NCBI GenBank assembly: GCA_019322485.1
Contig: JAHWIK010000015.1
Location: 23,216-87,215 of the forward strand
Direction of reading: 5' to 3'
Source: Candidatus Woesearchaeota archaeon
Lineage (GTDB): Archaea > Nanobdellota > Nanobdellia > Woesearchaeales > JAHWIC01
Length of the DNA: 64,000 nucleotides
Shown: positions 6,556 through 39,474 of the stretch, piece by piece
Layout: every line of letters begins with the position of its first letter
Position numbering within the stretch: position 1 is the stretch's first letter
Program-made: the position numbers and the translations under genes
Notes under the pieces: generated by a model
Databases searched by the model: none
What the model was told of the DNA's origin: nothing
The model's input: only the letters and a program-made list of their open reading frames with translations

Positions 6556-6556
6556 T

Positions 6557-8663: not shown

Positions 8664-9043
8664 AGAAAATAATCATTGACACAAACTTTTTAATGGCAGT
8701 AAGCCAGTTTAAGGTAGATATTTTCTCGGAGATAAGAAGGATTTGTGATTTTAGTTATCAATTATTTATCATCGACAAAACAATCAATGAACTCAAGTCA
8801 ATAATAGAAACCCAGAAGGGGAAGAATAAGGCTGCGGCCAAATTAGCATTATCAATAATAAAACTCAAAAAAATTAAAAAAATAAAAACAAAGGAAGGAA
8901 CTGTTGATGAGCTGATTCTAAAACTTCCGAAGAAAGACACAATTGTTGCGACGCAGGATATGGAATTAAAGGGCAGGCTGAGGAAAAAAGGAATTCCTCT
9001 TATTGTTTTAAGGCAGAAGAAGTATTTGGTTATAGTTGAGTAG
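8660..9043 (+). CDS. PIN-domain protein (Fcf1/Nob1-like small nuclease)
   Basis: N-terminal 'KIIIDTNFLM' followed by conserved acidic residues and a C-terminal 'TQDMELKGRLRKKGIPLI' motif, typical of PIN domains; overlaps the upstream stop. Confidence 0.5.
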   Translation: MKKIIIDTNFLMAVSQFKVDIFSEIRRICDFSYQLFIIDKTINELKSIIETQKGKNKAAAKLALSIIKLKKIKKIKTKEGTVDELILKLPKKDTIVATQDMELKGRLRKKGIPLIVLRQKKYLVIVE

Positions 9044-9059
9044 AAATTTAAATTATATG

Positions 9060-18256: not shown

Positions 18257-18348
18257 TCTACCCTCCTACTTGATAAGTAGTTGTACGGGAACAATTATGA
18301 GTATAGGATTTTGAGGGGGTTTATAAATGTTGTGGTGAAGGGGCAAAT

Positions 18349-19614
18349 TTAATTTATCCAGCCTAATTCTTTAGCAGTTTGTTGGCAAATTACAATCTGG
18401 TTTAGATTGGCACCCTGTCCTCCTCCATCCTCAGACAACACGATACCACCACACATTAAACATGCCTTATTTTGAGGATATAAAGGTTCTTTATTGGGCT
18501 CAGGAATTCCTTCTGGTATGTTGCAGCAGGACATGTAGGGTCCCCTTGGACAAGGTGCTGTATATTTGTCCTTTACAAAAGAAAGACCACTAAAATAACC
18601 AAGATTATGAGCATTTTCATGTATAAATGTTTCCAACTTTTCATCTCGATACGCGGATGAAGTTTCGAGTGAAATGTAAATGTTTGGGAAAGGGGCAAAA
18701 CTTAAGAAACCTTGATAACCACCATTTTGATGGAAGTCATTTAAAAAAATTATCGTGATACTGTCATAATGACTTATATTGATTTTCTGTTTTTTAATTT
18801 CTTTATCAAAAAAATCTACTATATCTTGATTTGACCCTGTGCGCCTTCCTCTTTGTGGAGGATCTTCTTCCAGCTTATATGGTCCAAAAATTGAAACATT
18901 AAAGATGTCATTATCATAGCTATAGCCATACCTTGCTGCTTCTTTCTTGAAAAAGTCATTTATATAAAACAAAGAGTGGGGTCCTGGGCTTCTGGTTGGT
19001 ACCGACTCGTCTGCTGTTACCTCGAGACCAAAATATCCATTAGGATTATTCAATACTTCTAAGAATGAAAAAGATTTATCTTCAATATCACAGTTCAATT
19101 GGCCGTTTGTCCAAAAACATTCTCTTTCGCCACTTAAATAATGTGTTCTGCAACAATAATAAGCTCTGCCATATTCAAAATCATCCTTAGCTTTAAATTC
19201 AATAACTGCAATTTTAATTGGCCTTCTTAATGACCCTTTTATACATTTGCCACCCTCACAAACAGAAAGCCCAGAACATTTATCTTGACATGATTTTATA
19301 CAAGCTCCATCTCTACAACCGTTTTCGCATTCATAAGGTTCAATTCTTATTCTATTGTTGCTGCAATAGTACTCATAAAGAGTATTGTTATTTCTGCATC
19401 TATCGGTATATATCCTTGTTATGCTTTTGTTCAGCCTAAACCAAGTCTTATAGGTATAACTTACACTTCCTTTTGTAAAATAATTTTGGCCGTCACTATC
19501 TGAACAGGATTCAGAACTTAACCAAAAAAATCCTCCGGTAAAATCTTTTATTTCTGCTAAATATACGGCTAGGAGGAGTAAGACAACCACAAGGATAATT
19601 GTTGACTTTTTCAT
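18349..19614 (-). CDS. secreted Cys-rich protein with an HExxH motif (putative zinc metallopeptidase)
   Basis: Signal/anchor 'MKKSTIILVVVLLLLAVYLA'; many Cys; 'IHENAHNLGYFSGLSF' zincin-like motif near the C-terminus. Confidence 0.5.
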   Translation of the reverse strand: MKKSTIILVVVLLLLAVYLAEIKDFTGGFFWLSSESCSDSDGQNYFTKGSVSYTYKTWFRLNKSITRIYTDRCRNNNTLYEYYCSNNRIRIEPYECENGCRDGACIKSCQDKCSGLSVCEGGKCIKGSLRRPIKIAVIEFKAKDDFEYGRAYYCCRTHYLSGERECFWTNGQLNCDIEDKSFSFLEVLNNPNGYFGLEVTADESVPTRSPGPHSLFYINDFFKKEAARYGYSYDNDIFNVSIFGPYKLEEDPPQRGRRTGSNQDIVDFFDKEIKKQKINISHYDSITIIFLNDFHQNGGYQGFLSFAPFPNIYISLETSSAYRDEKLETFIHENAHNLGYFSGLSFVKDKYTAPCPRGPYMSCCNIPEGIPEPNKEPLYPQNKACLMCGGIVLSEDGGGQGANLNQIVICQQTAKELGWIN

Positions 19615-19636
19615 TGATTTAGATTATTTTTTTGGT

Positions 19637-19647
19637 TGTATATAAAT
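19637..19647 (-). promoter_or_regulatory. TATA-box-like element ~27 nt upstream of the 18349..19614 gene
   Basis: 'ttgtatataaa' in the divergent intergenic region. Confidence 0.3.
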
Positions 19648-19736
19648 TTTTTGACCCATTCAATCATTTTTTTGTTTATTGCTGACCTGCTTTAAGCGGC
19701 TCTTGCAGACTCAAAAATTGAATATGCTATAGAAAA

Positions 19737-19746
19737 CTATAAATAC
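19737..19746 (+). promoter_or_regulatory. TATA-box-like element ~25 nt upstream of the 19768 start
   Basis: 'actataaata' at archaeal BRE/TATA spacing. Confidence 0.3.
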
Positions 19747-19767
19747 CAATTCATTCAAAATAAGAGT

Positions 19768-20229
19768 ATGAAATACACAATATTATTGTCTTTATTGTCA
19801 ATTATAATAATAAGCGGTTGTTATGCTGAAAAATTAAATGAGGGGGATATTTATATCGATAGGATTGAAATAGTGAATCAGAGGTCTTGCGAAGAAATTG
19901 AAGCAGCTATGGAAACATCGGAATTAGCGAGACTTGATGGTTATAAAACAATGGCTGAAGTTTATACTTATGTAAGCCCTATAGAAGAATCGAGTGGACA
20001 AGATTATGCTTGCATTATCTTAAGAGAGGATCAGTATGATATGTATAAAAAAACTGGCAAGTTAGGATATACTGGTTGGAAACCTGGACTAAATAAAGCT
20101 GAAAGTCTACTTGGATTAGAACTAGATAAAACCACTAAAGTGTATTTTTGTTGTTATATTGTTGATGAGAATGGAGAGAAGATTTCTAATGATTTATGCA
20201 GTGAAAAGACATTTGAAAAAGTTTGTTAG
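19768..20229 (+). CDS. small secreted protein (153 aa), Cys-containing, unknown function
   Basis: N-terminal hydrophobic signal 'MKYTILLSLLSIIIISGC' (lipobox-like). Confidence 0.35.
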   Translation: MKYTILLSLLSIIIISGCYAEKLNEGDIYIDRIEIVNQRSCEEIEAAMETSELARLDGYKTMAEVYTYVSPIEESSGQDYACIILREDQYDMYKKTGKLGYTGWKPGLNKAESLLGLELDKTTKVYFCCYIVDENGEKISNDLCSEKTFEKVC

Positions 20230-20388
20230 TAACAAAAGAGCGATTAAATTAGCAGCAGACTTTATAGTTAAATTAATTCTTGCTTTAGTCTTATTCTTTT
20301 TGGGAATAGTTTTTGTAATAAGATGGATAGGGTTATTTTAGTGGATGAGCCGCCTATATGTTCTTTCTGAATTGGATATAGTTGATAT

Positions 20389-20739
20389 TTACCTTATCTC
20401 AACTTCACAGGTCTTCTTCGGCTCAACAGAAGCCTTTAGGACTCTTATTGTAAGTCCAAGAGCGCTTCTCTCTGTTCCTGTTGTTATGGTCAGGGTTTCT
20501 TCATCAACCCTTATCCTGCAGAAGGTTTCCTGCGGGCTGACATCAACAAGGATAAGATTTCTGCCTTCATGCTCAGTGATAAATCCTTTTCTAAGCACTA
20601 CAACAGGTTCTGGCTCAGGCTCTTTCTCTACTGCTGCTTCTTCTTCAGCTGCAGCCTCTGGTTCAGGAGCTTCCTCCTCAACAGGCTTAGCGCAGCCAAT
20701 AAGCAAAAACAAGATAAGAACTGAAATTATCTTTTTCAT
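20389..20739 (-). CDS. small lipoprotein-like secreted protein; paralog A (shared ~60-aa C-terminal two-Cys domain)
   Basis: 'MKKIISVLILFLLIGCAKP' lipobox-like signal, acidic/Pro-rich linker, C-terminal domain alignable to 20744..21232. Confidence 0.4.
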   Translation of the reverse strand: MKKIISVLILFLLIGCAKPVEEEAPEPEAAAEEEAAVEKEPEPEPVVVLRKGFITEHEGRNLILVDVSPQETFCRIRVDEETLTITTGTERSALGLTIRVLKASVEPKKTCEVEIR

Positions 20740-20743
20740 ATTA

Positions 20744-21232
20744 TCACCTCAACATAACTCTGCATGTTTCATCAGGGCTAAGGGATGGTTCAAGCACTTC
20801 TATGGTAATGCCCTGGATGCTTCTTGACTTTCCTTTGGTTATCAATATGCTCTCGCCATCTACCCTGAACGAGCAGTATGTTTTTTTTGGGCTTACATGG
20901 CTTAGAATAACATCCTTGCCCCTGAATTGAGTAACAATCCCAATTTCAAGCACTGTGCCAGGTTTTGGCGGCTCAGGCTCTGCCTCAACCTCTTCTATTT
21001 CCTCAACAACAGGCTCAAATTTAGGCTCTTCTTTTTTTCTTTCTGGTATTAACTCCTTGATGTTGCTTCTTACATCTTCGATAGAAATAAACTGCGATAG
21101 GTCTGGTCCAGCTAGAAACAGAAAAGCGAGAAGAAGCACAACCACAATAGCTATGTTAATCATGCGCGCCTTTCTTTGCTTCTCTAATTCATCTATGTCC
21201 TGTATTAACTTGGTTTCTGTTGTTTTCTTCAT
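20744..21232 (-). CDS. membrane-anchored/secreted protein; paralog B of the preceding gene
   Basis: TM helix, acidic/Pro-rich linker, and a C-terminal domain aligning with paralog A. Confidence 0.4.
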   Translation of the reverse strand: MKKTTETKLIQDIDELEKQRKARMINIAIVVVLLLAFLFLAGPDLSQFISIEDVRSNIKELIPERKKEEPKFEPVVEEIEEVEAEPEPPKPGTVLEIGIVTQFRGKDVILSHVSPKKTYCSFRVDGESILITKGKSRSIQGITIEVLEPSLSPDETCRVMLR

Positions 21233-21537
21233 AGTCTCTTGTATTCCTTCTTAACTCGTACCTTAATCTTGTTTATAGGAGCAAAGACTGGCCTCCCAAG
21301 GTGGTTAAACTCAACTCTTTTCTTCTCTTCATCTATATGCCTTACCTCTCCTTCTATATGGGGCTTGTCAGCTAGCCTAACCACATCGTGCATGGTTATT
21401 TGGTGTATACTGCGGACTGATTTCCAGCGGCCTCCCTTGCTTTTTACTCTGACCTGATGTATTTTAGCACTACTATCAGCTACTGATGAGCCAAATTTTT
21501 CGTGATGAGGCCTTCTCCTGGAAAATATTATTGACAT
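21229..21537 (-). CDS. small basic protein (102 aa), possibly an RNA-binding beta-barrel (Gar1-like?)
   Basis: Lys/Arg-rich; weak resemblance of 'LGRPVFAPINKIKV' to the Gar1 'GPINSPYISVK' motif; overlaps the upstream gene by 4 nt. Confidence 0.25.
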   Translation of the reverse strand: MSIIFSRRRPHHEKFGSSVADSSAKIHQVRVKSKGGRWKSVRSIHQITMHDVVRLADKPHIEGEVRHIDEEKKRVEFNHLGRPVFAPINKIKVRVKKEYKRL

Positions 21538-21585
21538 TTTTATTCCTTTTATGATATATGCAAAGCACTTATTTAAGTTTTACTG

Positions 21586-22830
21586 TTATTTCTTTTTGCT
21601 CTTTACCTTCTTTTTTCTTTTCAATTTTCTGCCGCATTTATAGCAGAATTTAGCGCCTGGCGCATTCCTGGCTTTGCATTTCCTGCATATGGTGAGCTTA
21701 GGCTTTGGCTGTTCTTTTAATTTTTTAGCTTTGATAATCCTGTAGATAATCCATCCAATTAAAATCAAAAAAGCCAGGCCTAAAGTTCCGAATGCAATTG
21801 TGTTCATAAAAGCCCTTAATTTCCATGCTTCCTGGGCCTCTTTTTTTATATCAGCTAATTCCTTTATGCGTTCTTCATCCTCTGTTCTTTTGCACTCACC
21901 GCAGTCAGCAGCACAGCCCCTACATGTTTCTCCAGGCTGGCAAACACCATCACCGCACCAGTCGCAATCCTCAGCACAAACACCCTGCTCTTCAACCTCA
22001 CAGATGCCATTTCCGCAGTATGTTTCACAAACACCTAAGGAGGTGCACCTTTCATAGGCGCCGCAGGCACAATCCTTTGCAGAATTCCTGCAGTTTTCGT
22101 TAACTCCAGCATCACAAAAGCCGTCATTTCTTATAAACGGCGAATGGCTGCATGCCTTATGCACGCAATAGCTCCCTTCGCACTCATCTGCTTCATTGCA
22201 GAATTGTCCATCACATTTGCCTACATCAACTGGGCAGTTGCTGCATGTCTCGTATTGTTTCTCTTTCACCTCATTGCCGCAGTAGGTTGCGCATTTACGC
22301 TCATCAACATCTCTTTTGGAATCGCCTTTATCATCTATACAGCTTTTATTTGGGTCACAGGAACAGTCATTTTCTGCGCTGATGCAGGATTCGTAGCTGT
22401 TCCTTGTAGTGCAGATGCCATCACCTTCATATCCAAAGTCAAAACTTATTGTCTTGGTCTCTGTCTTTGTTGGCGGTGATGTCGGCCATGGATAGCAGGT
22501 CCATGTCTGCTTGCCAACACAGTTTACAATCAGGGGGGTTGAAACATGCCCGAAAATACCCTTTGCTTCTACCCTAAACCCAAAATTCTTAGTCTGCCCC
22601 GCCACAAGGTCTTCGCCTATATCCCCATTATGGTCTTCAGTTTTCCAATTGCATGTAAGCTTGCAGATATTGCTAAGACCCATATTGATGTTAGAAGTAA
22701 GTTCTACAGTCTCCCCCTGGTAAGGAAGGGATGCAGGACTGGGAATAGAACCAATGGTATACTCATAGGCATATGCAGGCTGAAGACTTACTAATAAAAC
22801 AAACAAAATGCATAGCGGTGTTTTGAGCAT
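21586..22830 (-). CDS. secreted Cys-rich repeat protein with a C-terminal TM anchor and basic zinc-ribbon tail
   Basis: Signal peptide 'MLKTPLCILFVLLVSLQPAYA'; CGNGICE...CAEDCDWCGDGVCQPGETCRGCAADCGEC repeats; C-terminal TM plus 'CRKCKARNAPGAKFCYKCGRKLKRKKK'. Confidence 0.5.
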   Translation of the reverse strand: MLKTPLCILFVLLVSLQPAYAYEYTIGSIPSPASLPYQGETVELTSNINMGLSNICKLTCNWKTEDHNGDIGEDLVAGQTKNFGFRVEAKGIFGHVSTPLIVNCVGKQTWTCYPWPTSPPTKTETKTISFDFGYEGDGICTTRNSYESCISAENDCSCDPNKSCIDDKGDSKRDVDERKCATYCGNEVKEKQYETCSNCPVDVGKCDGQFCNEADECEGSYCVHKACSHSPFIRNDGFCDAGVNENCRNSAKDCACGAYERCTSLGVCETYCGNGICEVEEQGVCAEDCDWCGDGVCQPGETCRGCAADCGECKRTEDEERIKELADIKKEAQEAWKLRAFMNTIAFGTLGLAFLILIGWIIYRIIKAKKLKEQPKPKLTICRKCKARNAPGAKFCYKCGRKLKRKKKVKSKKK

Positions 22831-22869
22831 TTTTACTATACCTTGTCCTTTTGTAATTTAAAGTTTTCC

Positions 22870-24288
22870 TTAACCTGCTATAAACTCTATGATTCTGTCA
22901 TATACTTCCGGGGTAGTTAGAGGATACAGCATATAAGTGTGCTTAAACCTTTCTCCAGTGTAAGCCAGGTTCTTAGCGCCTTGTAAAGGCACGCTTGTAG
23001 AGCAGACAACATCATCATGGTATAGTTCAGTCTTGCCGCAGGGATAATAAGGCACTACACCAGCAACATGAATCATTCCTTTTTTTGCTTTTCCGGTTAT
23101 AGTCAGGTATCTTGTTCTACCTGGGGTTTCATCACCTGAGTTCAGCCTTGTCAGGAATGGACTTCCCTCAACCATGTCATAGCACTCCAGCCCAGGATGG
23201 GAAAAACTGCAGCCCACTGCAGGAGCTATTATATTTTCCCCGCCAATAATTCCGTGGTTTGGTGTTCCGATTGTAACAAGAACCTCAACACTCCCGCTTC
23301 CATATTTTCTTATATATTCTCTTGACACTAATCCGCCCATGGAATGGGCTATGATTATGACCTTGTTCTTTCCAGTGTAGTGCTTTAAGGTATCTATTGT
23401 CTTCTTAATCCTGTCTGAGTAGGCTGAGATATCCTTTTCATCCTCAACGCCAATTATCGAGCCCCTGTCATCATATACACCTAGGTAATAGGTTGTTCTT
23501 ACACAGACTGGTTTGTTTAGCTTTCCCCACAGTCCTGCTCCAACAGATTCCTCTCTTGCGCTTGGCAGCAGGATACCTTTGTTGATATAAAGGCCGTCTT
23601 TCTCAAGTTTATTCTGGAACTCTAAAAAATGATTTATGTTAGAATAATCTACATCCTCATTTTCTTTTGCAGAATGCCCATGGATAAGGATAATTGGTAA
23701 ATCAGTGTTGGGGTCAACGCTTTCTTGGGGTATGTATTCCTCTTTGCAGTCTGCAGGGCAATTCATTGGATTTTCATTAGCATCGCATCTTCCATTGCCG
23801 CAGGTTATAATCTCGCATCTTCTTGTTTTTGTGTTGCATCTTCCGTTAACACCACATCTGCAGTCATTAGGCGCTGTAACACAGTTTTCCCCAAGTTCAG
23901 ATTCACAGAGGCCGTCCTGGCAGTCAACTAAACCGCAGTCCTTGTCGCAGCCAAGCCCACACTCCCCAGGATTGCAGATTAGGTCGCCGCAATAAGAGTC
24001 TGCCTCGCAGCTTCCGCAGTCTTTTGCGCATGCAGAACAGCTTTCTTCTGCCTGGCAGAAATAATCCCCGCACCAGTCGCAGTCTAAGGAACATATGCCT
24101 CCCTCGTCTTCCTGGCAGATTCCGTCACCGCACCAGTCGCAATCAGCAAAACACAGTTCAACCTCATTTTCCTGGCAGATTCCATCACCGCAATAAGGCT
24201 TATTTGCAATGAAGAATAAATAACCAGAACCGCTTACCAAAAGGACAATGATGAACACCACAACTATTTCATTTTCAGATATTTTCAT
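22870..24288 (-). CDS. membrane-anchored alpha/beta-hydrolase (lipase/esterase, PGAP1/lipase class 2-like) with an N-terminal Cys-rich CGDGxC repeat stalk
   Basis: TM anchor; three 'CGDGICQE.E...C..DCDWC' repeats; hydrolase motifs 'ILIHGHSAKE' and nucleophile elbow 'IIIAHSMGGLVSREY'. Confidence 0.6.
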   Translation of the reverse strand: MKISENEIVVVFIIVLLVSGSGYLFFIANKPYCGDGICQENEVELCFADCDWCGDGICQEDEGGICSLDCDWCGDYFCQAEESCSACAKDCGSCEADSYCGDLICNPGECGLGCDKDCGLVDCQDGLCESELGENCVTAPNDCRCGVNGRCNTKTRRCEIITCGNGRCDANENPMNCPADCKEEYIPQESVDPNTDLPIILIHGHSAKENEDVDYSNINHFLEFQNKLEKDGLYINKGILLPSAREESVGAGLWGKLNKPVCVRTTYYLGVYDDRGSIIGVEDEKDISAYSDRIKKTIDTLKHYTGKNKVIIIAHSMGGLVSREYIRKYGSGSVEVLVTIGTPNHGIIGGENIIAPAVGCSFSHPGLECYDMVEGSPFLTRLNSGDETPGRTRYLTITGKAKKGMIHVAGVVPYYPCGKTELYHDDVVCSTSVPLQGAKNLAYTGERFKHTYMLYPLTTPEVYDRIIEFIAG

Positions 24289-24484
24289 AGGTGTGAGTTG
24301 GGGATTATCCTATTTAAGTTTTTGCTAAATTTAAAAAAACTTATAAAGAGGTTTGGACTTCCGGCAGTTATATGGCTCCTCTAGAAGTATCGGAAATGGC
24401 CCTGAGAATTGGTGTTCCTGTGTTGATGGGTATTACAGCTAGTGTCTATATTTTTGACTATTTTCTTAGAAGAAGGCAGTATGA

Positions 24485-24838
24485 TTAGTCTTTTGTGATT
24501 AGCTCATCAGCCTCAATATAAGGCTTTGTTCCTGCAAAAGGAATCTCACCATAACGGATTGTCCCCCTTACAACATAATCAACCTCATACTCAAATGTTT
24601 GCTGCGCTACTGCTTTCTTTACATAAAGATAAGGGCCACCGCTTACCTTAGCCCATTCCCGCTTTGCTGTTCCATCTATGATGCCCCTTATCTCAACTTC
24701 CATGCCTTCATACTTTTCAGGATTATCATTTATTGCTTTAATCAATGCACCATCACTTGCTTTTCTTACAATAATCTCATAGCCACCAAACTGGCAGCCG
24801 CATAAAAAAATTAAAAATAAAACTAATAGTTTTTTCAT
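24485..24838 (-). CDS. small secreted/lipoprotein-like protein (117 aa), last gene of the giant-protein operon
   Basis: 'MKKLLVLFLIFLCGCQFGG' signal; start overlaps the stop of the upstream gene by 4 nt. Confidence 0.4.
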   Translation of the reverse strand: MKKLLVLFLIFLCGCQFGGYEIIVRKASDGALIKAINDNPEKYEGMEVEIRGIIDGTAKREWAKVSGGPYLYVKKAVAQQTFEYEVDYVVRGTIRYGEIPFAGTKPYIEADELITKD

Positions 24839-26016
24839 TTTTTCTTCCTCTTTTTAGGCTTTAGTTTCTTTATCATTATTATCAATGCTGCAGCTATAAT
24901 AGCTAAGGCAACTGCCACATACAACAATGGAGATACCTTTCTTTCTGCTTCGTGCAGCTCTATTGTAAACTCCCTTTCAAAGGTTTTATCTTTATAGTAA
25001 GCCTTTGCCTTTAGTTCATAAGATCCAAGCTCCAGCTCATGCGCTTCCCAATGAAGCCTTACAGAGCTGTTCCTGTTTGGTTCGATATCAATCCTGTTTG
25101 CTTCCATAGCTGCAATTACTGTGCCATTCCTGATAATATCTGCAGTCAGGTTAACATCCTCAAGCTCTTTATTCCAGTTTGACCCTAAGAACATATTTAT
25201 CCTGTTGATTTTATCAACAACAGCAGTTCTTGTTCCTAAGAAAATCAGCACCCCTTCTTCACCAATCCTAAAACTTCCAGTTTCTTCTACTGCTTTTCCG
25301 GAAAACTTAATGATTGATTCTGCATCATACTCACCAGGCTTGAACAGGAACTTCTTTATGGTTAATTGGTTTTCATGACTTTTTCCAGGCTCAATAGTAA
25401 ATGTTGCTTTTGGCAGGGATAGTATCTTCTTCTCTGTATTTCCCAGAATCTTATAACCAAGCACTACATCATGGAATCCATTTACAAGTGCAGCTTTGTA
25501 CAGGCTTGCAACTTTCTCTTTATTCTCATATATGTTAAGGTCATTCTCTATTCCTCCAATTGTTATTGCGCCTTTGTTTTCCATTACTGTTGTAAATTTC
25601 ATAAGATATTGGCTGTCATCAATAACCAAAAGCTCTGTTTTAAGGTATTCCTCAGGATACGGAACAAATAAATTAACCGTATGATGTACTGATGGCTTTG
25701 TTGTTACTGTTCCTGAACCTGCTGGTTCTTCATATACAACTATCTTAGCCTGATGCTCGCCAGGCCCGAAAGGCCCTGATAGGTTAAAGCTGAATTCTTT
25801 TGGGCCTATTACAACCCCTTCACGCGCAATCTCCACGTCAAGCTCACCTTCAACACCAATTGTAATCCTTGTTGGAAGGTTTGATGAAGGTATAACTGTA
25901 AAAACACCTGAATGCTCTTTATTCCCAAAGAAATCTGTCTTTGCGGGCATTGCCCCTAAAGCAAACACAGCGTCTATTGAAAGCACCAATATAATAAATA
26001 AAATCCATTTTTTCAT
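24835..26016 (-). CDS. secreted protein with an N-terminal signal peptide and a C-terminal TM anchor plus KKRKKK tail (393 aa)
   Basis: Signal 'MKKWILFIILVLSIDAVFALG'; C-terminal 'PLLYVAVALAIIAAALIIMIKKLKPKKRKKK'; start overlaps the giant gene's stop. Confidence 0.45.
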   Translation of the reverse strand: MKKWILFIILVLSIDAVFALGAMPAKTDFFGNKEHSGVFTVIPSSNLPTRITIGVEGELDVEIAREGVVIGPKEFSFNLSGPFGPGEHQAKIVVYEEPAGSGTVTTKPSVHHTVNLFVPYPEEYLKTELLVIDDSQYLMKFTTVMENKGAITIGGIENDLNIYENKEKVASLYKAALVNGFHDVVLGYKILGNTEKKILSLPKATFTIEPGKSHENQLTIKKFLFKPGEYDAESIIKFSGKAVEETGSFRIGEEGVLIFLGTRTAVVDKINRINMFLGSNWNKELEDVNLTADIIRNGTVIAAMEANRIDIEPNRNSSVRLHWEAHELELGSYELKAKAYYKDKTFEREFTIELHEAERKVSPLLYVAVALAIIAAALIIMIKKLKPKKRKKK

Positions 26017-29000
26017 GTTGTTCTCACCAATATAGTTGAATTCTTCTGCCCCGAGGGCTCAAGCAACGGCACAGTTGCGTTCAAATCAATCTCTGCTGTG
26101 TCTGAGGCATCTTCCCAGTTTAGATTATATATTGCCGGCGTGCTGTTTGAAGGCATTGGAGTTAATGTTGTCGTTGCTGAAGTGAATGAGCCGGATTCAT
26201 TCACGCCTATTGCGAATTGATATGACTCATTTGGATTAGGCACTGTCTCAAACAAGTCAGTTGCATTTATTGATATGTTGACAATTAAATTGCCTACATT
26301 TTCCAATAGGAGCGGCAGTGGGCTGTCATCTTCTGTGGATTCACTAAAGCCAGGTATTACCACCCCAAAGTCAACTACATCCCTTGTCAGGTTTATTGCT
26401 ATGTATGAGCTTAATGTAAAGTTCCATACATCGCTCCATTCTCCTGAGATAATGGAGTGATAAGCCCTTACTCTCCAGAAATATGTCTTGTCAAGCTCGA
26501 GGTCGCTTATTAGTGTGTGGCTGGTTTCATTATTGCTTCCTTCTGATAGATTTCCTCTTGAGTAATCTAATGATGTAAAGATTGGCGAATCATCTATCTC
26601 TATCTCGTATTTTGCAGTTGTTGAGCCATTGTAGGTTGCATTGTACCAAGTGAATGTTGGCCTTAGCTCTGTTGTGGTGTTTCCGCTTTCCGGGCTTTTG
26701 AGGATAACCTTTGACGGCCTGTTGGCTTCTTCTCTTTCACATGCGTCTTTGCATGTGTAGCCATTGTATGTCTGGGTATAATCACAGACCCATATGTTCT
26801 CTTTGCTGTTTCCATTGCTCCAAGGCAGTTCTCCTGATACTGTTCTTGTGTCATTGTCATCTCTTAACTCAACCTCAACAGTATAGTATCCTTCACTCAA
26901 GCCGCTTAAACTGACTGTGCCATTGCACATTCCTGTTGATGCAAGCGGAACACTTCCGAGAGATATCCTGCTGCCAGGGCTGTTCTTTTCTGCATAAACA
27001 ACACAGCCAGAGGCATTAGCAGTAAATCCATAAGTGCTTGTGAAATTAACTGCTACATTCAGTGTTTCTGTTGGCACGTAATAATCCTTTGTTGGGTATG
27101 AAGTACTGCAGTTTGTGTCTATGCAGAAGAATCCTGTTGTTTGTTTTGGCAAGGTTCTTACATCAATGGTCAGGCTTGTGTTTGGACCAATATTGCCGAC
27201 ACCATCAACTGCCCTTGCATAGATTGTATTTAAGCCGTCAGATAATGTGAGGGCATACCTGCAGTCATAAGCTGATGTTTCATTTACCCATCCAGTGCCG
27301 TCATTAAACTGGCAAAGTTCAACGCCGGAATTCCATGTGCCAGAGTCAGTTGCATTTACTCTTACATAAACAGTGTCTGAGGCGCTTAATCTGGTAACTG
27401 TATTGTCTGTTTTTATCATTCTTAGCCTGGAGGTTGTGTAATCATCATCTGCAGGAGTTGTTTTTACAAATACTGGTGCTTGCGGCGGCTCTGTTTCAAG
27501 GATGTACTGCGTAACATCTGCATTTTGCTCTACTCCGCCTATACTTGTTGAGACATAATACGAGAAACTCGAGTTTTGTACAATTGTGTCATTATCAGGG
27601 ACAGTTATCCAGAATGTTAGGTTTAAAATCTGGTTTGGATATGCTCCGCTGTATTCTATAAGGACAGCCTGGTAATGATATCCTGATTGAGCACTGTACT
27701 GCACATTGAAATTACCAGAGTCTGTTCCATAGATTCCAGAGTTTGATGCATTCATCTCATAATCTAATGGCACATAGGTTGCGCTTGCACTTCCAAGATA
27801 AATCTGGATTGTTTTTCCGTTTACATTTGTGGCTGAGTCTGTGAATGTGAATGTAAGGTTTTTTCCTCTCCAATGATATTCTGTGTATGTCAGGTCAGGT
27901 GTTCCGCCGCCCCAGTTTGTGTTTACTGAGTAATCTGGGGGCTCTCCGCCTATGTAGCTGACTGCTGCTGCATCAGAGCATTTTAGCGTGCATGCTGCTA
28001 AACTATTTGTATACGGGGCCAGGCATGAAGCACCTGATGAACAATCTGAGTCTTCGCAGTCAACTGAATTGTCAAAATCATTGTCATAGCTGTCTGTGCA
28101 TGCTGATTCTGTTGTTCTATACCCTGTTCCTGCACTAGCCGAGTTGCAGATTCCTTGGCTTGTAGACCACACACCAACGATTCCATCACAGTCTGAATCC
28201 CTGCAGTCATAAACACCATCATTAAGGCTGGCGTTTATCTCATTAGGGTCATAATTTGTCTTTGAGATGTATTCATCTTGGTATTCATACTCATTGTTTA
28301 AGCCATCCATGCACGAATCTAGCGTTACATTCTCTTCTGGAGGACAGACCCTGCATAATCCTTGATGATAACATCCTGTATCATAACAGTTTGCAAGATT
28401 ATCGCCATCATTATCCATTGAGTAAGCTGTTGTTCCGCTTGAATTATAATCACCGCAAAGAGTATCATCAAAAGGATCAAAGTACATCTCTTCAAATAAT
28501 GCACATAAAATATCTCCTGGGCCCAGCAGGCCATTGCAGTCAGGGTCGCCACAATCTGTTCCTGAAGCATCATTTGTCTCGTATTCTGTTCCATTCCATG
28601 TGTAGGCATCTAGGTCATTGTCTAATGTGTCATTGCAGGTCTGCTCTACTATTGATAATCCTGAGCCGTCATCTGTACAGACATACAGGCCAGATTCCTG
28701 CACAGCATAGCAGTTATAATCATCACAATCTTCACCTGTATTTGCACCGGCATGTGCGCTTCCTGACTCTCCAACATAATAGGTTCCTAGGTCTTGGTCA
28801 TTGTCAACTCCATCAGAACAGTTGTATTCCCATCTTATTGTGCATAAGCCGATATTTCCTGAGTCATTTATGTAAGTGTTATTGCAGTCAGAGTCATAAT
28901 TATTCCATGCACAGTCAATTCCTGCTCCAGCTGCAGTACTTAGATTAATACCATCTGACAAATAATTATCAAGGTCATTGTCAATGCTGTCAAGGCACCA

Positions 29001-32000
29001 GTTTTGTGTGCTGTTGCAGCCAGTTGGTGAGCATGTATAGTTTTCCCGGCCAGGGCAGGCAGAATTGTTATAACAGCTGTAATCATTGCAGTCACCATCT
29101 TGCAGGTAGGTGTTTGCTCCAAAGTGGTATTGATATGATGCATTTGTCCATCCAGGGTTCTGCATCTGGCTGATGTAATAATCCTGGTCATTATCAAAAA
29201 CATCTGTACAGTTTCTTTCAATAATTAATTCACAGTTTTGTCCTGACGGGCCGATAGCTGTATCATTGCAGTCTTGGTCATATCTATAGCTGTCATAAGC
29301 AATAGCATACGGCCAGAATTGGTTTGGAGTGAGACCATATGCATAATAGATGCAGTCTATTCCGCCTGATAGGTTTTCCACTCTGTTTGAATCTAATAAA
29401 TAATCAGTTATGTTGTAGACATACCTGTCTAGGTCATTGTCAACTCCATCAGTGCACAATGATGCTGTTTCTGTTGTAGGGCATGCAGAGTCATTTGCAC
29501 AGTCATAATCATCACAATCATAGCCGCCAGAGGCGCTTGTCCTATTCCCGCCAGGATTGTATGCATTATCTAAGTCATTGTCATAACCATCTGTACAGTT
29601 TATCTCGTGGCCTAGCTCACATTTTCCAGGACCCATATCAACACCATCACAGTCTGCATCAGGGTAGTGGTTTCCATCATAGTTATATCTGCAGTCCATT
29701 CCACCGCCATACTGGTTGTTTGTTGCACTATATTGTGTTCCTGTCCAGCCGGTTATTGTATAATAATCAAGGTCATTATCCTTGTTGTCAGAACAGTTTG
29801 CTCCATCATTTTCCCAATAGTTTGTTACATTGCATGTTGATTGGCAGTCATACTCTCCATGTGCAATGTTGCTTCCACCTGCACCATATTGATAATTTGG
29901 GTTTGTTGTTGAGGCTCCTGTTGAGGTCGTATTGCAGTCAAGTTCCCCATCCTGGTCATTATCAAATCCATCTGAGCAGCTTGTTTCAAAGATTAATTGG
30001 CATGTTCCTGCTGGCAATACAGAACTATTGCAGTCTATATCATACTCTACCATCCTGCAGTCAGCTCCTGCTCCTGGCAAGCCCGAGTAAAAGTCTAGGT
30101 CATTGTCCTTTCCGTCAATGCATGTTATTCCTGACTCATTTATGGGACAGTTTGAATCATTGAAACAATCATATTCTCCATGAGGATAAGTTCCTCCACC
30201 AGAATAGGTTGACCTGGGGTTAGTTGGATTGCTTAAGTACTGGATTACCCCGCCTGTAAAGAATGCTGTTGTGTTGCAGTCAAATGCTCTGTCACGGTCA
30301 TTATCAAACAAGTCATTACATATTGTTTCTACCCCTAATTCGCATGTGCCATTGATTCCTCCAACATTATAGCTGAGCCAGCTTGAGTTTAGGATGTATG
30401 TGTTGTTGCAGTCAGTGTCCCATGTACCTGCATTATAATGGCAGTCTGTATCACCATCATCGTCATTGTCAAAGCCGTCTGTGCAGGAGTTATTTGTTGC
30501 AGCATATTTGCTTTCATTCTGGTAAGCGCATAAAGGATAGGTTCCGTCAGGGTTTGCCGATGTTGAACCAATATAAGCGTCGCAATCAATGTCAATACAG
30601 TCTGTTGTATAATCCAAGTCATTGTCATATGAGTCTGCACAAGATATATCATGTTCATCTCTTACGCCGTCATCTGAAATATTTATGTTAAATTTAAAGT
30701 CATATGCTGAACCATTAAATATCCTGTTCAAGACTAAGCCATACATTCCATAGAAGTTGTTTGTTGTATTCATCATTGCTTTTAGGACATTATCTAATGT
30801 GCTTTGGGTGTAAGGTGTTGGGTCAGAAGGAGGATTTGGGCCAGACTGGGCAATTATTGAGTTAGCACTTGTTGTTTTTCCGCTTAGACCGGTTGTTGCG
30901 GAGTAGTTTAATATCCAGAAATCACCAGGGTTTTCCTGCCATAATGATGTATTGAACTGCCACACCTTGAAATAAGCTGTATAGCCTGTTATTTGCGAGG
31001 TTTGATACAGCCTCATACTAAACAATGCTTCTGGCTGTATCTTGTATGTGTAAGTGACTGCTGTGTTCGATGCTGTTCCAGTGCATAAGTTTGGTGCGCA
31101 TGAAGCATCACAGGTTCCACCGTCTATGCATTGAAGTGACCCATCTAAATCACCTGGGTCATATGGCGGGTCATCTCTCCAGCCAGCTGCTGTTTTGTTG
31201 CAAGTCCATGCAGGAGTGCCCTGCTTGTTTGTATTAGAGCCCCCTACAATATAATATTCTCCGTAGACAATTGAAGCGCAGTCTGAATCCTCACAATCTA
31301 TTTTACCATCTCCATCATCATCTGCATTATTAGCACAGTGCGTCTCCACAACGTCAGGGGTATTCTTTTTCTTTATTGAGAAGTCAACGTCTTTTGCACC
31401 ATAATAATATGATGAGTCTGCGGGATTATAGAAAACACTTGAACAGGTGTTGTTTTCAAGGAAGTAGTTTGAGTTATCTACGCCGGCTGCACAGTTTGCT
31501 GCCCTGGTCACATAACCTACATACCATGCATAGTTGAGGGCAGCTTTACCCTCGTAGAAAGCAAGTTGCACTGTTCCGTTTAATCTTCTGCCAGATGTTA
31601 CAGGTATTGTGCATGTCCTGTGGCATTCTTCACCAACAGGGCATGTTGAATCCTCAGAGTTATTGACATTAGTCACTGTATTGCTTTGGCTTATTGTATA
31701 GGATATAGAGTAATTATTTCCTGCTGTGTTGGTAACTGTTTCTGCTCCATCTGCATAGTTCGAGTCCATGCAGGAGAAATTAGCTTTTAGGTTTTCGATT
31801 ATTCCTTCTCCGATTACTGTCAGATTTATTACTGAACCATCTTCGTAGAACACCCTTCTCCTGTAATTATTTGAGGTATCTGCCACTCTCAACAGGAAGA
31901 ATCCTACTGTTCCTGATGAGCTAGCTCCTCCTGTTATTTCTGTAATAGATGATAACTCTTTTCCATCAGGGATTATGAAGAAGTTTAGTGAACTGACAAG

Positions 32001-32063
32001 TAAGAGGATAATACAAAGTACTAATTTAATAATTTCAGATATCTTTTTTGTTTTATCTTTCAT
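26013..32063 (-). CDS. giant (2016 aa) cell-surface protein with ~14 MopE-like putative metal/Ca-binding repeats (C[ST]DGxDND[LQD]D...DC); N/T/S/D/G/Y-rich with many N-glycosylation sequons
   Basis: Uninterrupted 6051-nt ORF. N-terminal signal-anchor 'IIKLVLCIILLLVSSLNFFIIP'. Repeated motifs such as 'CTDGFDNDDDGDTDC', 'CSDGFDNDQDGELDC', 'CTDGYDNDLDN' and 'CANNADDDGDGKIDCEDSDC'. Almost no K/R/E in the mature region. Confidence 0.7.
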   Translation of the reverse strand: MKDKTKKISEIIKLVLCIILLLVSSLNFFIIPDGKELSSITEITGGASSSGTVGFFLLRVADTSNNYRRRVFYEDGSVINLTVIGEGIIENLKANFSCMDSNYADGAETVTNTAGNNYSISYTISQSNTVTNVNNSEDSTCPVGEECHRTCTIPVTSGRRLNGTVQLAFYEGKAALNYAWYVGYVTRAANCAAGVDNSNYFLENNTCSSVFYNPADSSYYYGAKDVDFSIKKKNTPDVVETHCANNADDDGDGKIDCEDSDCASIVYGEYYIVGGSNTNKQGTPAWTCNKTAAGWRDDPPYDPGDLDGSLQCIDGGTCDASCAPNLCTGTASNTAVTYTYKIQPEALFSMRLYQTSQITGYTAYFKVWQFNTSLWQENPGDFWILNYSATTGLSGKTTSANSIIAQSGPNPPSDPTPYTQSTLDNVLKAMMNTTNNFYGMYGLVLNRIFNGSAYDFKFNINISDDGVRDEHDISCADSYDNDLDYTTDCIDIDCDAYIGSTSANPDGTYPLCAYQNESKYAATNNSCTDGFDNDDDGDTDCHYNAGTWDTDCNNTYILNSSWLSYNVGGINGTCELGVETICNDLFDNDRDRAFDCNTTAFFTGGVIQYLSNPTNPRSTYSGGGTYPHGEYDCFNDSNCPINESGITCIDGKDNDLDFYSGLPGAGADCRMVEYDIDCNSSVLPAGTCQLIFETSCSDGFDNDQDGELDCNTTSTGASTTNPNYQYGAGGSNIAHGEYDCQSTCNVTNYWENDGANCSDNKDNDLDYYTITGWTGTQYSATNNQYGGGMDCRYNYDGNHYPDADCDGVDMGPGKCELGHEINCTDGYDNDLDNAYNPGGNRTSASGGYDCDDYDCANDSACPTTETASLCTDGVDNDLDRYVYNITDYLLDSNRVENLSGGIDCIYYAYGLTPNQFWPYAIAYDSYRYDQDCNDTAIGPSGQNCELIIERNCTDVFDNDQDYYISQMQNPGWTNASYQYHFGANTYLQDGDCNDYSCYNNSACPGRENYTCSPTGCNSTQNWCLDSIDNDLDNYLSDGINLSTAAGAGIDCAWNNYDSDCNNTYINDSGNIGLCTIRWEYNCSDGVDNDQDLGTYYVGESGSAHAGANTGEDCDDYNCYAVQESGLYVCTDDGSGLSIVEQTCNDTLDNDLDAYTWNGTEYETNDASGTDCGDPDCNGLLGPGDILCALFEEMYFDPFDDTLCGDYNSSGTTAYSMDNDGDNLANCYDTGCYHQGLCRVCPPEENVTLDSCMDGLNNEYEYQDEYISKTNYDPNEINASLNDGVYDCRDSDCDGIVGVWSTSQGICNSASAGTGYRTTESACTDSYDNDFDNSVDCEDSDCSSGASCLAPYTNSLAACTLKCSDAAAVSYIGGEPPDYSVNTNWGGGTPDLTYTEYHWRGKNLTFTFTDSATNVNGKTIQIYLGSASATYVPLDYEMNASNSGIYGTDSGNFNVQYSAQSGYHYQAVLIEYSGAYPNQILNLTFWITVPDNDTIVQNSSFSYYVSTSIGGVEQNADVTQYILETEPPQAPVFVKTTPADDDYTTSRLRMIKTDNTVTRLSASDTVYVRVNATDSGTWNSGVELCQFNDGTGWVNETSAYDCRYALTLSDGLNTIYARAVDGVGNIGPNTSLTIDVRTLPKQTTGFFCIDTNCSTSYPTKDYYVPTETLNVAVNFTSTYGFTANASGCVVYAEKNSPGSRISLGSVPLASTGMCNGTVSLSGLSEGYYTVEVELRDDNDTRTVSGELPWSNGNSKENIWVCDYTQTYNGYTCKDACEREEANRPSKVILKSPESGNTTTELRPTFTWYNATYNGSTTAKYEIEIDDSPIFTSLDYSRGNLSEGSNNETSHTLISDLELDKTYFWRVRAYHSIISGEWSDVWNFTLSSYIAINLTRDVVDFGVVIPGFSESTEDDSPLPLLLENVGNLIVNISINATDLFETVPNPNESYQFAIGVNESGSFTSATTTLTPMPSNSTPAIYNLNWEDASDTAEIDLNATVPLLEPSGQKNSTILVRTT

Positions 32064-32212
32064 TATTCTATTAACACCACTTTTACTTTTTTGTTAGCCC
32101 AGTGTTTAGGAACGTAGATTTGAGCACCGTTGCCGCTGTGTTTTGCGGTCTTCTCAATAACCTCATAACCTTCCATTTCCATTTGAATCGGCTTTCTCTT
32201 TAGGCGTTTCAT
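32063..32212 (-). CDS. DUF2080-like small protein, copy 1 (49 aa; MKRLKRKPIQMEMEGYEVIEKTAKHSGNGAQIYVPKHWANKKVKVVLIE); stop overlaps the giant gene's ATG (TAATG)
   Basis: Translated by hand from the minus strand; below the 60-aa cutoff of the ORF track. '...GNxAxIxVPKxWxxKxVKVxLxE' matches my recollection of the archaeal DUF2080 ('putative transposon-encoded') family. Confidence 0.5.
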   Translation of the reverse strand: MKRLKRKPIQMEMEGYEVIEKTAKHSGNGAQIYVPKHWANKKVKVVLIE

Positions 32213-32352
32213 TATTCTATTAACACCACCTTGACTTTTTTGTTAGCCCAGTGTTTAGGAACGTAGATTTGAGCACCGTTGCCGCTGTGTTTTGCAGTCT
32301 TCTCAACTACCTCATGCCCTTCTATTTTCATCTGAATTGGCTTACTTTTCAT
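32064..32352. repeat. tandem direct duplication (2 x ~145 bp, the first ~100 nt nearly identical) carrying the two DUF2080-like genes
   Basis: 'ttctattaacaccac(c)tt(t/g)acttttttgttagcccagtgtttaggaacgtagatttgagcaccgttgccgctgtgttttgc' occurs at 32066 and 32215. Confidence 0.8.
32212..32352 (-). CDS. DUF2080-like small protein, copy 2 (46 aa; MKSKPIQMKIEGHEVVEKTAKHSGNGAQIYVPKHWANKKVKVVLIE); stop overlaps the copy-1 ATG
   Basis: Tandem duplicate of copy 1; the 3' two-thirds are near-identical at nucleotide level and the N-terminal coding part has diverged. Confidence 0.5.
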   Translation of the reverse strand: MKSKPIQMKIEGHEVVEKTAKHSGNGAQIYVPKHWANKKVKVVLIE

Positions 32353-32388
32353 GTAGCTACAATGTAGCTACATCACTTTATAAAGATT
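32351..32388 (-). promoter_or_regulatory. putative promoter/operator of the DUF2080-giant-protein operon: TATA-like 'TTTATAAA' (32378-32385) plus duplicated palindrome 'ATGTAGCTAC-A-ATGTAGCTAC' (32351-32371) abutting the start codon
   Basis: The TATA-like element is ~29 nt upstream of the minus-strand ATG at 32352. GTAGCTAC is self-complementary and occurs twice in tandem. Confidence 0.4.
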
Positions 32389-32436
32389 TCGGTATTTTAG
32401 AAGATATTTTGAGAAAGAACGTCAGAAAGAAACTAT

Positions 32437-32715
32437 TTACTGAATATCCTCAATCCTAATTATATGATATCCAAACTGAGTCTTTACGGGGCCGACAATG
32501 TCTCCTTTCTTTGCATTGAAGCAGGCATTCTCAAACTCTTTTGCCATTTGACCTCTTTTAAACCATCCAAGATTTCCTCCCTTTTTTCTTGAAGGGCACA
32601 TTGATTTCTCTTTAGCAACCTCTGCAAAGTCCTTTCCATGAGTCACATCATAAGAAACAACAAGAGCTTCCTGCTCTGTTTTAACTAAGATATGCGATGC
32701 ATTGACTTTTTTCAT
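32437..32715 (-). CDS. parvulin-type peptidyl-prolyl cis-trans isomerase (Par10/PinA-like)
   Basis: 92 aa; 'ASHILVK...CPSRKKGGNLGWFKRGQMAKEFENACF...GYHIIRIE' parvulin signature. Confidence 0.75.
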   Translation of the reverse strand: MKKVNASHILVKTEQEALVVSYDVTHGKDFAEVAKEKSMCPSRKKGGNLGWFKRGQMAKEFENACFNAKKGDIVGPVKTQFGYHIIRIEDIQ

Positions 32716-32729
32716 AAAACACCCCTGAT

Positions 32730-39453: not shown

Positions 39454-39474
39454 TGAAAATCAAAGATTTTCAGT

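Follow-up and report, generated by a model that had tools for sequence, protein, structure and literature searches.

The subject of this study is a 64,000-nucleotide (nt) stretch of DNA from a Candidatus Woesearchaeota archaeon (contig JAHWIK010000015.1, positions 23,216 to 87,215; hereafter the window), in which a block of cell-envelope genes lies next to the gene for ribosomal protein L1. The only widely conserved core of this block, found across Woese-, Pace- and Nanoarchaeota, is a pair of adjacent genes encoding lip472, a predicted membrane-anchored lipase/esterase on a cysteine-rich stalk, and cys414, a predicted type-I membrane protein with a cysteine-rich stalk of its own. The most likely reading of the evidence, to which we give about an even chance, is that lip472 and cys414 form a heterodimeric surface esterase/lipase complex acting on foreign ester lipids. 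We found no description of either family, or of the pair, in the literature, and public annotations of both families read 'alpha/beta hydrolase' or 'hypothetical protein'. The lipase domain itself is an ordinary member of a known superfamily.

In a preliminary description of the region, lip472 was described as an alpha/beta-hydrolase ('AHSMGGLVSR') carried on three CGDGxC repeats, and this held up well. The three tandem repeat units are present (residues 33-94; coordinates of all features are given in Table 1), and the catalytic domain scored above the Pfam cut-offs (in brackets) for Lipase_2 at E 1.5e-9 and 38.2 bits (20.3), PGAP1 at 1e-7 and 32.4 bits (24.3), Palm_thioest at 9e-7 and 29.3 bits (26.8) and LCAT at 26.7 bits (21). 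The AHSMGGLVSR motif occupies residues 314-323. An alignment of 43 sequences of the lip472 family revealed that H203-G204-H205, S316, D425, H450 and the stalk cysteines are invariant, as are H315, G318 and G319. From the order of these residues and the fold, we infer that Ser316, Asp425 and His450 constitute the catalytic triad and that HGH is the oxyanion motif. The AlphaFold2 model has a predicted local distance difference test (pLDDT) score above 90 over most of residues 190-472, together with a helix at residues 5-28. A Foldseek search with the catalytic domain matched 298 PDB chains at E<=1e-3, and the 50 best were nearly all lipases or esterases. The best matches were true lipases, namely Streptomyces MAS1 (5h6g, 1.4e-10), 7v3k and the Proteus lipase 4gw3; MAJ1, LipA, CALB, DUF915 proteins and PhaZ7 were among the matches as well. 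Collectively, these results suggest that lip472 is a membrane-anchored lipase/esterase with intact catalytic motifs.

The closest known counterparts of lip472 are the class 2/minimal bacterial lipases (Lipase_2, PF01674, Bacillus LipA; MAS1, 5H6G; Proteus lipase, 4GW3), with which it shares the alpha/beta fold, the AHSMGG elbow, the HG oxyanion motif and the putative Ser-Asp-His triad. Further related surface alpha/beta-hydrolases are PGAP1 (PF07819), the DUF915 cell-surface hydrolases (3DS8) and PhaZ7. Like the solved lipases, lip472 is predicted to be extracellular, and its hidden Markov model (HMM) scores exceed the Pfam cut-offs. It differs from them in sequence, with 12-21% identity in the Foldseek alignments, and in being carried on a Cys stalk of ~150 aa behind an N-terminal anchor, with a partner bearing the same module encoded alongside. 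The family comprises ~80 near-full-length homologue clusters at 39-60% identity. In contrast to the bacterial lipases, the names on these homologues, where given, are only those of DPANN archaea (Woese-, Pace-, Nano- or Aenigmatarchaeota) or of an uncultured archaeon.

The neighbouring gene encodes cys414, which contains 39 Cys residues. It is predicted to consist of a signal peptide (residues 1-21), an immunoglobulin (Ig)-like beta-sandwich (22-132), a Cys stalk (133-313), a transmembrane (TM) helix (343-365) and a basic tail with a CxxC..CxxC motif (380-403). The AlphaFold2 model (mean pLDDT 83) agrees with this layout: residues 22-132 form a confident Ig-like sandwich, residues 133-313 a confident Cys-rich region, and residues 318-370 a long helix that includes the TM segment. 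The family contains ~60 homologue clusters, and the cysteines are invariant in an alignment of 42 homologues. A more specific identity was sought for the N-terminal domain but not found; the matches were generic (Ig, PapD or MSP-like), and weak ones to NPC2, a lipid-binding ML domain, at E ~2e-3 were judged uninformative. The preliminary description had assigned a C-terminal basic Zn-ribbon tail to this protein. The basic tail and all four of its cysteines are indeed present, and the match to Zn_Ribbon_1 (PF13240; E 6e-5) scored 23.2 bits, slightly short of the cut-off (25). The CxxC...CxxC tail occurs in about half of the family, the window protein and its close relatives among them, and the remainder has only a Lys-rich tail. 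The tail (residues 380-403 of 414; 21622-21693, minus strand) also resembles ribosomal protein L40e, although below the threshold (PRK04136, E 5.6e-5, 22.6 bits; cut-off 54).

The two families are linked by a common cysteine module. An alignment of the lip472 and cys414 family profiles with hhalign returned one 49-column segment with a probability of 98.9% and E 1.1e-17, for which the consensus is CG[DN]GxCxxxExGxCxxDCxWCGDGxCxxxExCxSCxxDCGxC. The similarity extends to the DNA, where the cys414 module and the lipase repeats at 24052-24195 are 67-70% identical (repeat D6). In lip472 the module comes straight after the TM anchor, and in cys414 it stands just ahead of the helix that runs into the TM segment; the models therefore place the same module at the membrane surface in both proteins, in opposite topology. 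The preliminary description had taken the proteins of this region to be secreted; free secretion does not fit lip472, with its predicted N-terminal anchor, or cys414, with its predicted C-terminal TM helix; both are better described as membrane-anchored surface proteins.

The CGDGxC units had been likened to the Myxococcus-type cysteine-rich repeat. To begin with, the motif itself is far from a chance occurrence: the six-frame translation of the window contains five copies of CG[DN]GxC, all of them in lip472 and cys414, and 200 shuffled sequences averaged 0.005. A looser pattern for the module finds seven copies in the window. When the isolated stalks of the two proteins were searched with TIGR02232 (myxo_disulf_rpt) and PF13948 (DUF4215), neither model matched either stalk even at E<=10. 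Both detected the positive control P0124, a homologue of the neighbouring gene product hen421 (TIGR02232 2.3e-10; PF13948 7e-6), so a true DUF4215 repeat does occur in a relative of a protein of this block. The Cys spacing also differs. The window unit is ~20 aa long with the spacing C-x4-C-x7/8-C-x3-C (CGDGxC-x7/8-C-x2-DC) and lacks a DDGN core, whereas P0124 has CGDGKKHVLEQCDDGNLINGDRCSSSC with the spacing C-x10-C-x11-C-x3-C. What the two repeats have in common is a CG[DN]G start, an acidic residue before the next Cys, a tandem arrangement and an extracellular setting; what separates them is that the stalk units escape both models, are more tightly spaced and are without the CDDGN core. We therefore rejected membership of the Myxococcus repeat. 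The stalk module, like the hen421 family, matches no Pfam or NCBIfam model searched.

To examine the conservation of the pair, we inspected eight genomic contexts: L001/2 (a 731-kb Woesearchaeota contig), L003/4, L087/88, L089 (505 kb), L090 (240 kb), L091 (Pacearchaeota), L092 and the window itself. In all eight, the lipase and cys414 genes are direct neighbours on the same strand, often overlapping by 4 bp, at lipase identities of 39-60%. Further, 25 pairs of lipase and cys414 clusters have a longest contig of identical size, down to contigs of 3 kb. Elsewhere the pair stands without the rest of the block. The exception is the closest relative, L092, where p393 and lp117 lie ahead of the pair just as they do in the window (p393-lp117-lipase-cys), at 66-67% identity. 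One protein of 705 aa, P0040, is an in-frame fusion of a cys414-type signal peptide, Ig-like domain and stalk to a lipase stalk and catalytic domain; the two parts meet inside the shared CDWCGDGxC module, and neither TM helix remains. P0040 represents either a Rosetta-stone fusion, secreted as a single chain, or an artefact of assembly.

Taken together, these observations suggest how the proposed complex might work. Two single-pass proteins would lie side by side in the membrane in opposite topology and associate via their homologous membrane-proximal modules. Their stalks, disulfide-rich or metal-stabilised, would hold the esterase and the Ig-like domain ~10 nm out, at or beyond the surface layer (S-layer). 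There the enzyme may hydrolyse ester-linked lipids or polyesters that the cell does not make, from the membranes of bacterial partners or prey or from detrital lipids, and the Ig-like domain may supply attachment or substrate presentation. The other gene products of the block (a metzincin-like peptidase, small lipoproteins, a WxLIP-like protein and a giant adhesin-like protein) would be extra surface components rather than parts of a co-inherited system.

Several points weigh against a heterodimeric complex of this kind. Both the adjacency of the genes and the shared module could reflect common descent by duplication. The gene order is not fixed: the lipase gene comes first in the window and L092, the cys gene in the other contexts. 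The fusion protein P0040 stems from a Logan contig of 2803 bp, in which the repeat may have caused the assembly to collapse. In the lip472 model the stalk has low pLDDT at residues 30-120 (44-59) and moderate values at 120-170 (70-84), and the signal peptides and TM helices of both proteins were read from hydropathy, motifs and AlphaFold2 helices. As for the substrate, Lipase_2, PGAP1, Palm_thioest, LCAT, DUF915 and PhaZ7 match lip472 about equally, so no substrate can be read from these matches. Finally, an ester hydrolase would be useless against the ether lipids of archaeal hosts. An ester lipase on an archaeon with ether lipids points to foreign substrates, bacterial or detrital. Woese- and Pacearchaeota encode large extracellular murein-directed enzymes, which suggests that their partners are bacteria, and numerous families specific to DPANN sit in the membrane or outside the cell (PMC8204110). 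With this background, ester lipids from bacteria or detritus are the most plausible targets.

The same observations can be read without a complex. The two genes may have become neighbours by local duplication or recombination of one stalk and be kept together by shared regulation, in which case the lipase alone would be a tethered exo-esterase for scavenging and cys414 an unrelated adhesin. The shared module is short, at 49 columns; the DNA similarity between the two window genes could stem from recombination of neighbours; the order in the pair flips between lineages; and many longer lipase-domain proteins of the same phyla (650-816 aa; P0090-P0120) have other architectures. This explanation sits less well with the adjacency in every context inspected, in which the frequent 4-bp overlap suggests translational coupling, with the membrane-proximal position of the module in both proteins, and with the fusion protein. 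We regard it as unlikely.

A second alternative takes its cue from the operon itself. Family I.1/I.2 lipases of Pseudomonas and Burkholderia need an operon-encoded steric chaperone, Lif, and cys414 might likewise be a membrane-anchored maturation factor (a foldase or scaffold) for a disulfide-rich lipase, with no role in substrate binding. Both systems are conserved two-gene cassettes of an exported lipase and a membrane-anchored extracytoplasmic partner, and the Foldseek matches of lip472 include Pseudomonas and Burkholderia lipases (1tah, 4lip, 1ex9, 1ys1). However, the partner here is an Ig-like sandwich on a Cys stalk rather than the all-helical Lif fold, with no relation to Lif in sequence or fold; both proteins are anchored, not just the partner; and the best structural matches of lip472 are to the Lif-independent lipases Streptomyces MAS1, Proteus lipase and LipA. 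A role as a Lif-like factor is therefore improbable. We place as little weight on the idea that lip472 works on the cell's own envelope as a deacylase of the PGAP1 or thioesterase type, remodelling or releasing lipid-modified surface proteins such as the neighbouring lipoproteins. The PGAP1 and Palm_thioest matches are above cut-off, and two proteins with a lipobox (lp116 and lp153) and one that is probably exported (lp117) are encoded in the same block. Yet the pair is not accompanied by the small lipoproteins in other genomes, the closest folds are those of secreted triacylglycerol lipases, and the long stalk would put the active site away from the cell's own membrane.

We next consider the setting of the pair. 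The preliminary description held that the region is inserted next to the L1-P0-P1 operon and that it replaces the L11 gene expected upstream of L1. A comparison set was assembled by a scan with the L1 protein, taking one genome per GTDB species, and yielded 80 loci, mostly labelled Woesearchaeota or Nanoarchaeota. A transglutaminase-like homologue is found upstream of L1 on the same strand in 11 of these relatives, and in five (L010, L005, L031, L009 and L024) it lies only 90-200 nt upstream; in L010 the isoprenoid gene cluster that follows the transglutaminase-like gene in the window (33997-42246) is syntenic as well. The transglutaminase-like gene is thus the ancestral upstream neighbour of L1 in the closest relatives. 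Since it adjoins L1 there, the inserted stretch extends from the L1 gene, its left boundary, to the transglutaminase-like gene. The region is therefore an insertion, as proposed, and at ~14.4 kb covers more than twice the span first reported. None of the 11 block genes (18349-32715) has a homologue within +/-10 kb of L1 in the 80 related genomes, and none was found when 85 members of the lipase and cys414 families were used as queries against the same loci; the parvulin gene likewise had no homologue in the 80 loci at E<=0.01.

Displacement of L11 is not supported. L11 is absent from the 64-kb window. Among the 68 of 80 loci that are informative for linkage, with at least 1.5 kb of sequence upstream of L1, L11 is directly upstream of L1 in only two, both of them outgroups (L052 and L084, the latter from Bathyarchaeia), and lies at 1.4 kb in one other; it is unlinked in 65 or 66. 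Across all 80 loci, L11 is within 10 kb of L1 in just six, whereas P0 directly follows L1 in 74 and P1 is present in 75. Compared with the archaeal L11-L1-L10(P0)-L12(P1) cluster, the window keeps L1, P0 and P1 contiguous and co-oriented, and L11 is unlinked here as it is across the sampled Woese-/Nanoarchaeota neighbourhood. The missing L11 is hence a clade-wide state in that neighbourhood and not a result of the insertion; nothing was displaced by the block. Relatives do carry rpl11 elsewhere, and they do not share the gene order of the window, as they are without the block. We also considered whether the small gene o102 might be an Spt5 remnant of an Spt5-L11-L1 arrangement and rejected this; its KOW match is sub-threshold (E 0.023) and synteny gives no support. 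A pair of cys and lipase genes adjoins L1-P0-P1 in one very distant genome, L091 (Pacearchaeota, ERZ23498405 scaffold_238, 5805-9278), where it is divergent and 0.6 kb from L1, with Spt5 and L11 ~10 kb away on the opposite strand. This layout is found in none of the 80 GTDB L1 loci and may be a coincidence or a weak positional preference.

The ribosomal genes have a peculiarity of their own in the form of long Lys/Glu/Pro/Ala-rich extensions. The P0 protein of the window is 660 aa long, roughly double the usual size, with ~330 aa of Lys/Glu-rich low-complexity sequence; the L1 tail is ~65 aa, and the L11 of relative L005 (3218-4027) has a tail of ~110 aa. An Rfam scan of the window returned no RNA families.

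The composition of the block bears on how it arose. Its codon usage correlates with that of the rest of the window at 0.972, and equally sized control subsets gave 0.975 +/- 0.010. The GC content at third codon positions is heterogeneous within the block (0.23-0.43), at 0.23-0.27 in hen421 and lp153 and 0.40-0.43 from lp162 through lip472. There are no tRNA genes in the window, no repeats were found that bound the block, and Pfam scans of the block genes turned up no recombinase or integrase, the nearest signal being a weak match to DUF2080. The block is thus compositionally native and not recognisable as a mobile element. From the gene overlaps it can be divided into at least three transcription units: hen421 alone; lipase-cys414-o102-lp162-lp116; and two small open reading frames (ORFs) followed by the giant gene, p393 and lp117.

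Three accounts of the block were set aside. Recent horizontal transfer of a mobile island gained no support from codon usage, tRNA genes or bounding repeats, which leaves just the weakly DUF2080-like small ORFs. The whole block does not travel as a unit, as only lip472 and cys414 recur widely, joined by p393 and lp117 in L092. Nor is the transglutaminase-L1 junction a hot spot for surface genes: the spacing between the two genes in other relatives ranges from 0.09 to 5.3 kb, and the fillers of 0.6-5.3 kb are unrelated, mostly cytoplasmic genes. We read the locus as a junction without conserved gene order that gathered envelope genes in this lineage, not as a mobile island that arrived recently. 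The reading implied by the preliminary description, in which an effector island of secreted proteins with Myxococcus-type repeats was acquired horizontally and pushed rpl11 out of the operon, could draw on the absence of the block at this position in 80 relatives, the lack of L11 in the window and the weak matches to DUF2080 ('transposon-encoded protein') near the right end of the block. It is largely refuted, and we consider it very improbable, because L11 is unlinked from L1 in nearly all informative loci, the repeats fail both repeat models while the positive controls work, codon usage is native with no integrase, tRNA or terminal repeat, and the proteins appear to be membrane-anchored. The window may, as was also suggested there, hold a secreted 'effector' repertoire of a host-dependent archaeon; the observations that bear on this are that the proteins appear to be anchored at the surface, that lip472 and cys414 alone travel together in other genomes, and that the block has neither a mobile-element signature nor a foreign composition.

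Table 1. Features of the window discussed in the text (positions count from the first nucleotide of the window).
Feature	Position	Strand	Description
P1 gene	15107-15427	-	part of the L1-P0-P1 operon
P0 gene	15432-17414	-	Pfam Ribosomal_L10 2e-23
L1 gene	17411-18256	-	Pfam Ribosomal_L1 1e-41, NCBIfam PRK04203 4e-60; first gene of the L1-P0-P1 operon
Inserted stretch	18257-32729		~14.4 kb of lineage-specific cell-envelope genes
hen421, 421 aa	18349-19614	-	predicted exported; N-terminal Cys-rich module ('CSDSDG...') and C-terminal HExxH domain
lp153, small predicted lipoprotein	19768-20229	+	lipobox ISGC, 7 Cys; from lipobox/hydropathy scan
lp116, small predicted lipoprotein	20389-20739	-	lipobox LIGC; paralogue of lp162
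lp162, paralogue of lp116	20744-21232	-	predicted cytoplasmic N-terminus and TM helix (residues 24-42) in place of a lipobox
o102, basic 102-aa ORF	21229-21537	-	no hydrophobic segment or export signal; KOW4_SPT5 E 0.023, sub-threshold
cys414, 414 aa, 39 Cys	21586-22830	-	predicted type-I membrane protein
cys414 membrane-proximal double Cys module (residues 269-317)	21880-22026	-	CGNGICExxExGxCxxDCxWCGDGxCxxxExCxxCxxDCGxC
lip472, 472 aa	22870-24288	-	predicted N-terminal TM helix (8-28), Cys stalk (33-181), alpha/beta-hydrolase domain (~190-472)
lip472 putative nucleophile Ser316 codon (AHSMGG)	23341-23343	-	invariant alignment column
lip472 Cys stalk	23746-24192	-	three tandem 20-22-aa CGDGxC..E..C..DC units (residues 33-94) and four degenerate modules to residue 181
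lp117, small, probably exported protein	24485-24838	-	N-terminal hydrophobic segment ending CGC
p393, predicted surface protein	24835-26016	-	signal peptide, WxLIP host-binding-like domain, C-terminal TM helix and basic tail
Giant predicted exported protein, 2016 aa, 89 Cys	26013-32063	-	periodic repeats of ~110-150 aa; DNA repeat families D1-D4
Two tandem ORFs, 46 and 49 aa	32212-32352 and 32063-32212	-	143-nt duplication, direct repeat D5, 91% identity
Parvulin-type peptidyl-prolyl isomerase, 92 aa	32437-32715	-	Pfam Rotamase 6e-24; without export signal; last gene inside the inserted stretch
Transglutaminase-like membrane protein	32730-33452	-	Transglut_core 4.6e-10; right boundary of the insertion
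Two PKD/Big_9/He_PIG-domain proteins	54977-57130 and 57157-58272	-	
M64-like peptidase	59392-60546	-	PF09471 E 3e-9

The ORFs listed in the preliminary description are all present where it placed them, and several details of their arrangement and export need amending. The region had been presented as four consecutive minus-strand genes; the span in fact holds six minus-strand ORFs and the plus-strand lipoprotein gene lp153 (19768-20229). As to their being signal-peptide proteins, a scan for hydropathy and motifs found an N-terminal hydrophobic segment in the product of every gene of the reported region except o102, which lacks an export signal, and the anchor of lip472 is not obviously cleavable. 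The lipobox pattern [LVI][ASTVI][GAS]C after an N-terminal hydrophobic segment is matched by lp116 and lp153 and by neither lp117 nor lp162. On this motif evidence, lp116 and lp153 are candidate lipoproteins. The 'two small paralogous lipoproteins', lp116 and lp162, are indeed paralogues (46% identity over the C-terminal 69 aa, E 2e-20 by blastp), and only lp116 has a lipobox (LIGC), lp162 having a TM helix instead. The product of lp153 gave no family match. The o102 gene overlaps the start of lp162 by 4 nt.

Upstream of the pair, the start of lp117 overlaps the end of p393 by 4 nt. The p393 protein matches PF11797 (WxLIP_HBD) at E 2.8e-10 and 40.7 bits against a cut-off of 28.9. Judged by the 4-nt overlaps, the giant gene appears to form an operon with p393 and lp117. 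Its repeats carry acidic 'C.D..DND.D...DC' motifs that are reminiscent of the MopE-type metal-binding motif but were not detected as such, and it gave only weak Ig/fn3 Pfam matches, near the C-terminus. The two tandem ORFs that precede it encode MK..PIQM..EG.EV.EKTAKHSGNGAQIYVPKHWANKKVKVVLIE and overlap each other and the start of the giant gene by 1 nt (TAATG). They match DUF2080 ('putative transposon-encoded protein', AbrB-like) at a sub-threshold E of 0.008-0.03. The lipase pair also has small MazE/AbrB-like genes in its vicinity in L003, L088, L089, L090 and L091.

At the L1 end of the block lies hen421, labelled metalloprotease-like in the preliminary description on account of its HENAH motif. 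The motif is present (residues 332-336), and in six homologues H332, E333, H336, D349, Y351 and M387 are invariant, giving the pattern HExxHxLG...D.Y...M. Judged from the alignment, D349, Y351 and M387 are plausibly placed for a third zinc ligand and a Met-turn. The protein itself had no Pfam, NCBIfam or PDB sequence match. A word-indexed search found the six close homologues, an exhaustive profile search found 501 clusters at E<=1e-3, and distant members of the family gave sub-threshold matches to Reprolysin_3/_5 (8e-5 to 2e-3). These results suggest that hen421 is probably a metzincin-like zinc peptidase with Asp as the putative third ligand, so the earlier label is reasonable, if unproven. 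Compared with metzincin/reprolysin-like peptidases (Reprolysin_3/_5; snapalysin-type HExxHxxGxxD), hen421 shares the invariant HExxH, the ...LG...D.Y pattern and the downstream Met. In contrast, an insertion of seven residues separates its HExxH helix from the Asp, and none of the Pfam or NCBIfam models searched represents its family of ~500 clusters. Residues 37-106 (window ~19297-19506) form a module, 'CSDSDG..Y.KG......D.C.....L.EYYC.......Y.C..GC..GAC', of which tandem copies occur in a 688-aa protein, P0127. The module has no Pfam match and appears to be a further uncatalogued Cys-rich extracellular one.

Two further gene clusters lie beyond the transglutaminase-like gene. The first, on the plus strand at 33997-42246, is a bacterial-type methylerythritol phosphate/deoxyxylulose phosphate (MEP/DOXP) isoprenoid cluster in an archaeon. 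It encodes DXS (6e-122), IspG/GcpE (3e-141), an IspD-IspF fusion, a polyprenyl synthetase and two ORFs of 289 and 270 aa taken as putative IspE and IspH. No DXR was recognised in the cluster. A 461-aa protein with a PEP-utilizers mobile domain (36920-38305) is encoded between IspG and IspDF, where DXR might be expected, and may be a candidate DXR substitute. The MEP pathway has already been reported in a Woesearchaeota clade (PMC8204110, PMC8421398). The second is another surface-protein cluster, on the minus strand at 54977-60546, which includes two PKD/Big_9/He_PIG-domain proteins and the M64-like peptidase that the preliminary description had correctly noted.

How DPANN archaea attach to and feed from their partners is largely unknown, and most of their lineage-specific surface proteins are without a predicted function (PMC8204110). 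For one DPANN surface family pair, the present analysis provides a concrete, testable description: a stalked lipase and a co-encoded partner with the same membrane-proximal module. It also corrects two tempting inferences, namely that the block displaced L11 and that the CGDGxC repeat is a Myxococcus repeat. The pair bears on whether Woese- and Pacearchaeota associate with bacteria. In its most far-reaching form, which we consider quite unlikely, the pair would be a dedicated host-contact organ of Woese-/Pacearchaeota, in which the Ig-like domain binds bacteria and the lipase hydrolyses ester phospholipids to breach the membrane or to harvest fatty acids and glycerol. If this were true, the pair would show directly, at the molecular level, that it is bacteria and not archaea that these DPANN archaea exploit, and would serve as a tractable marker.

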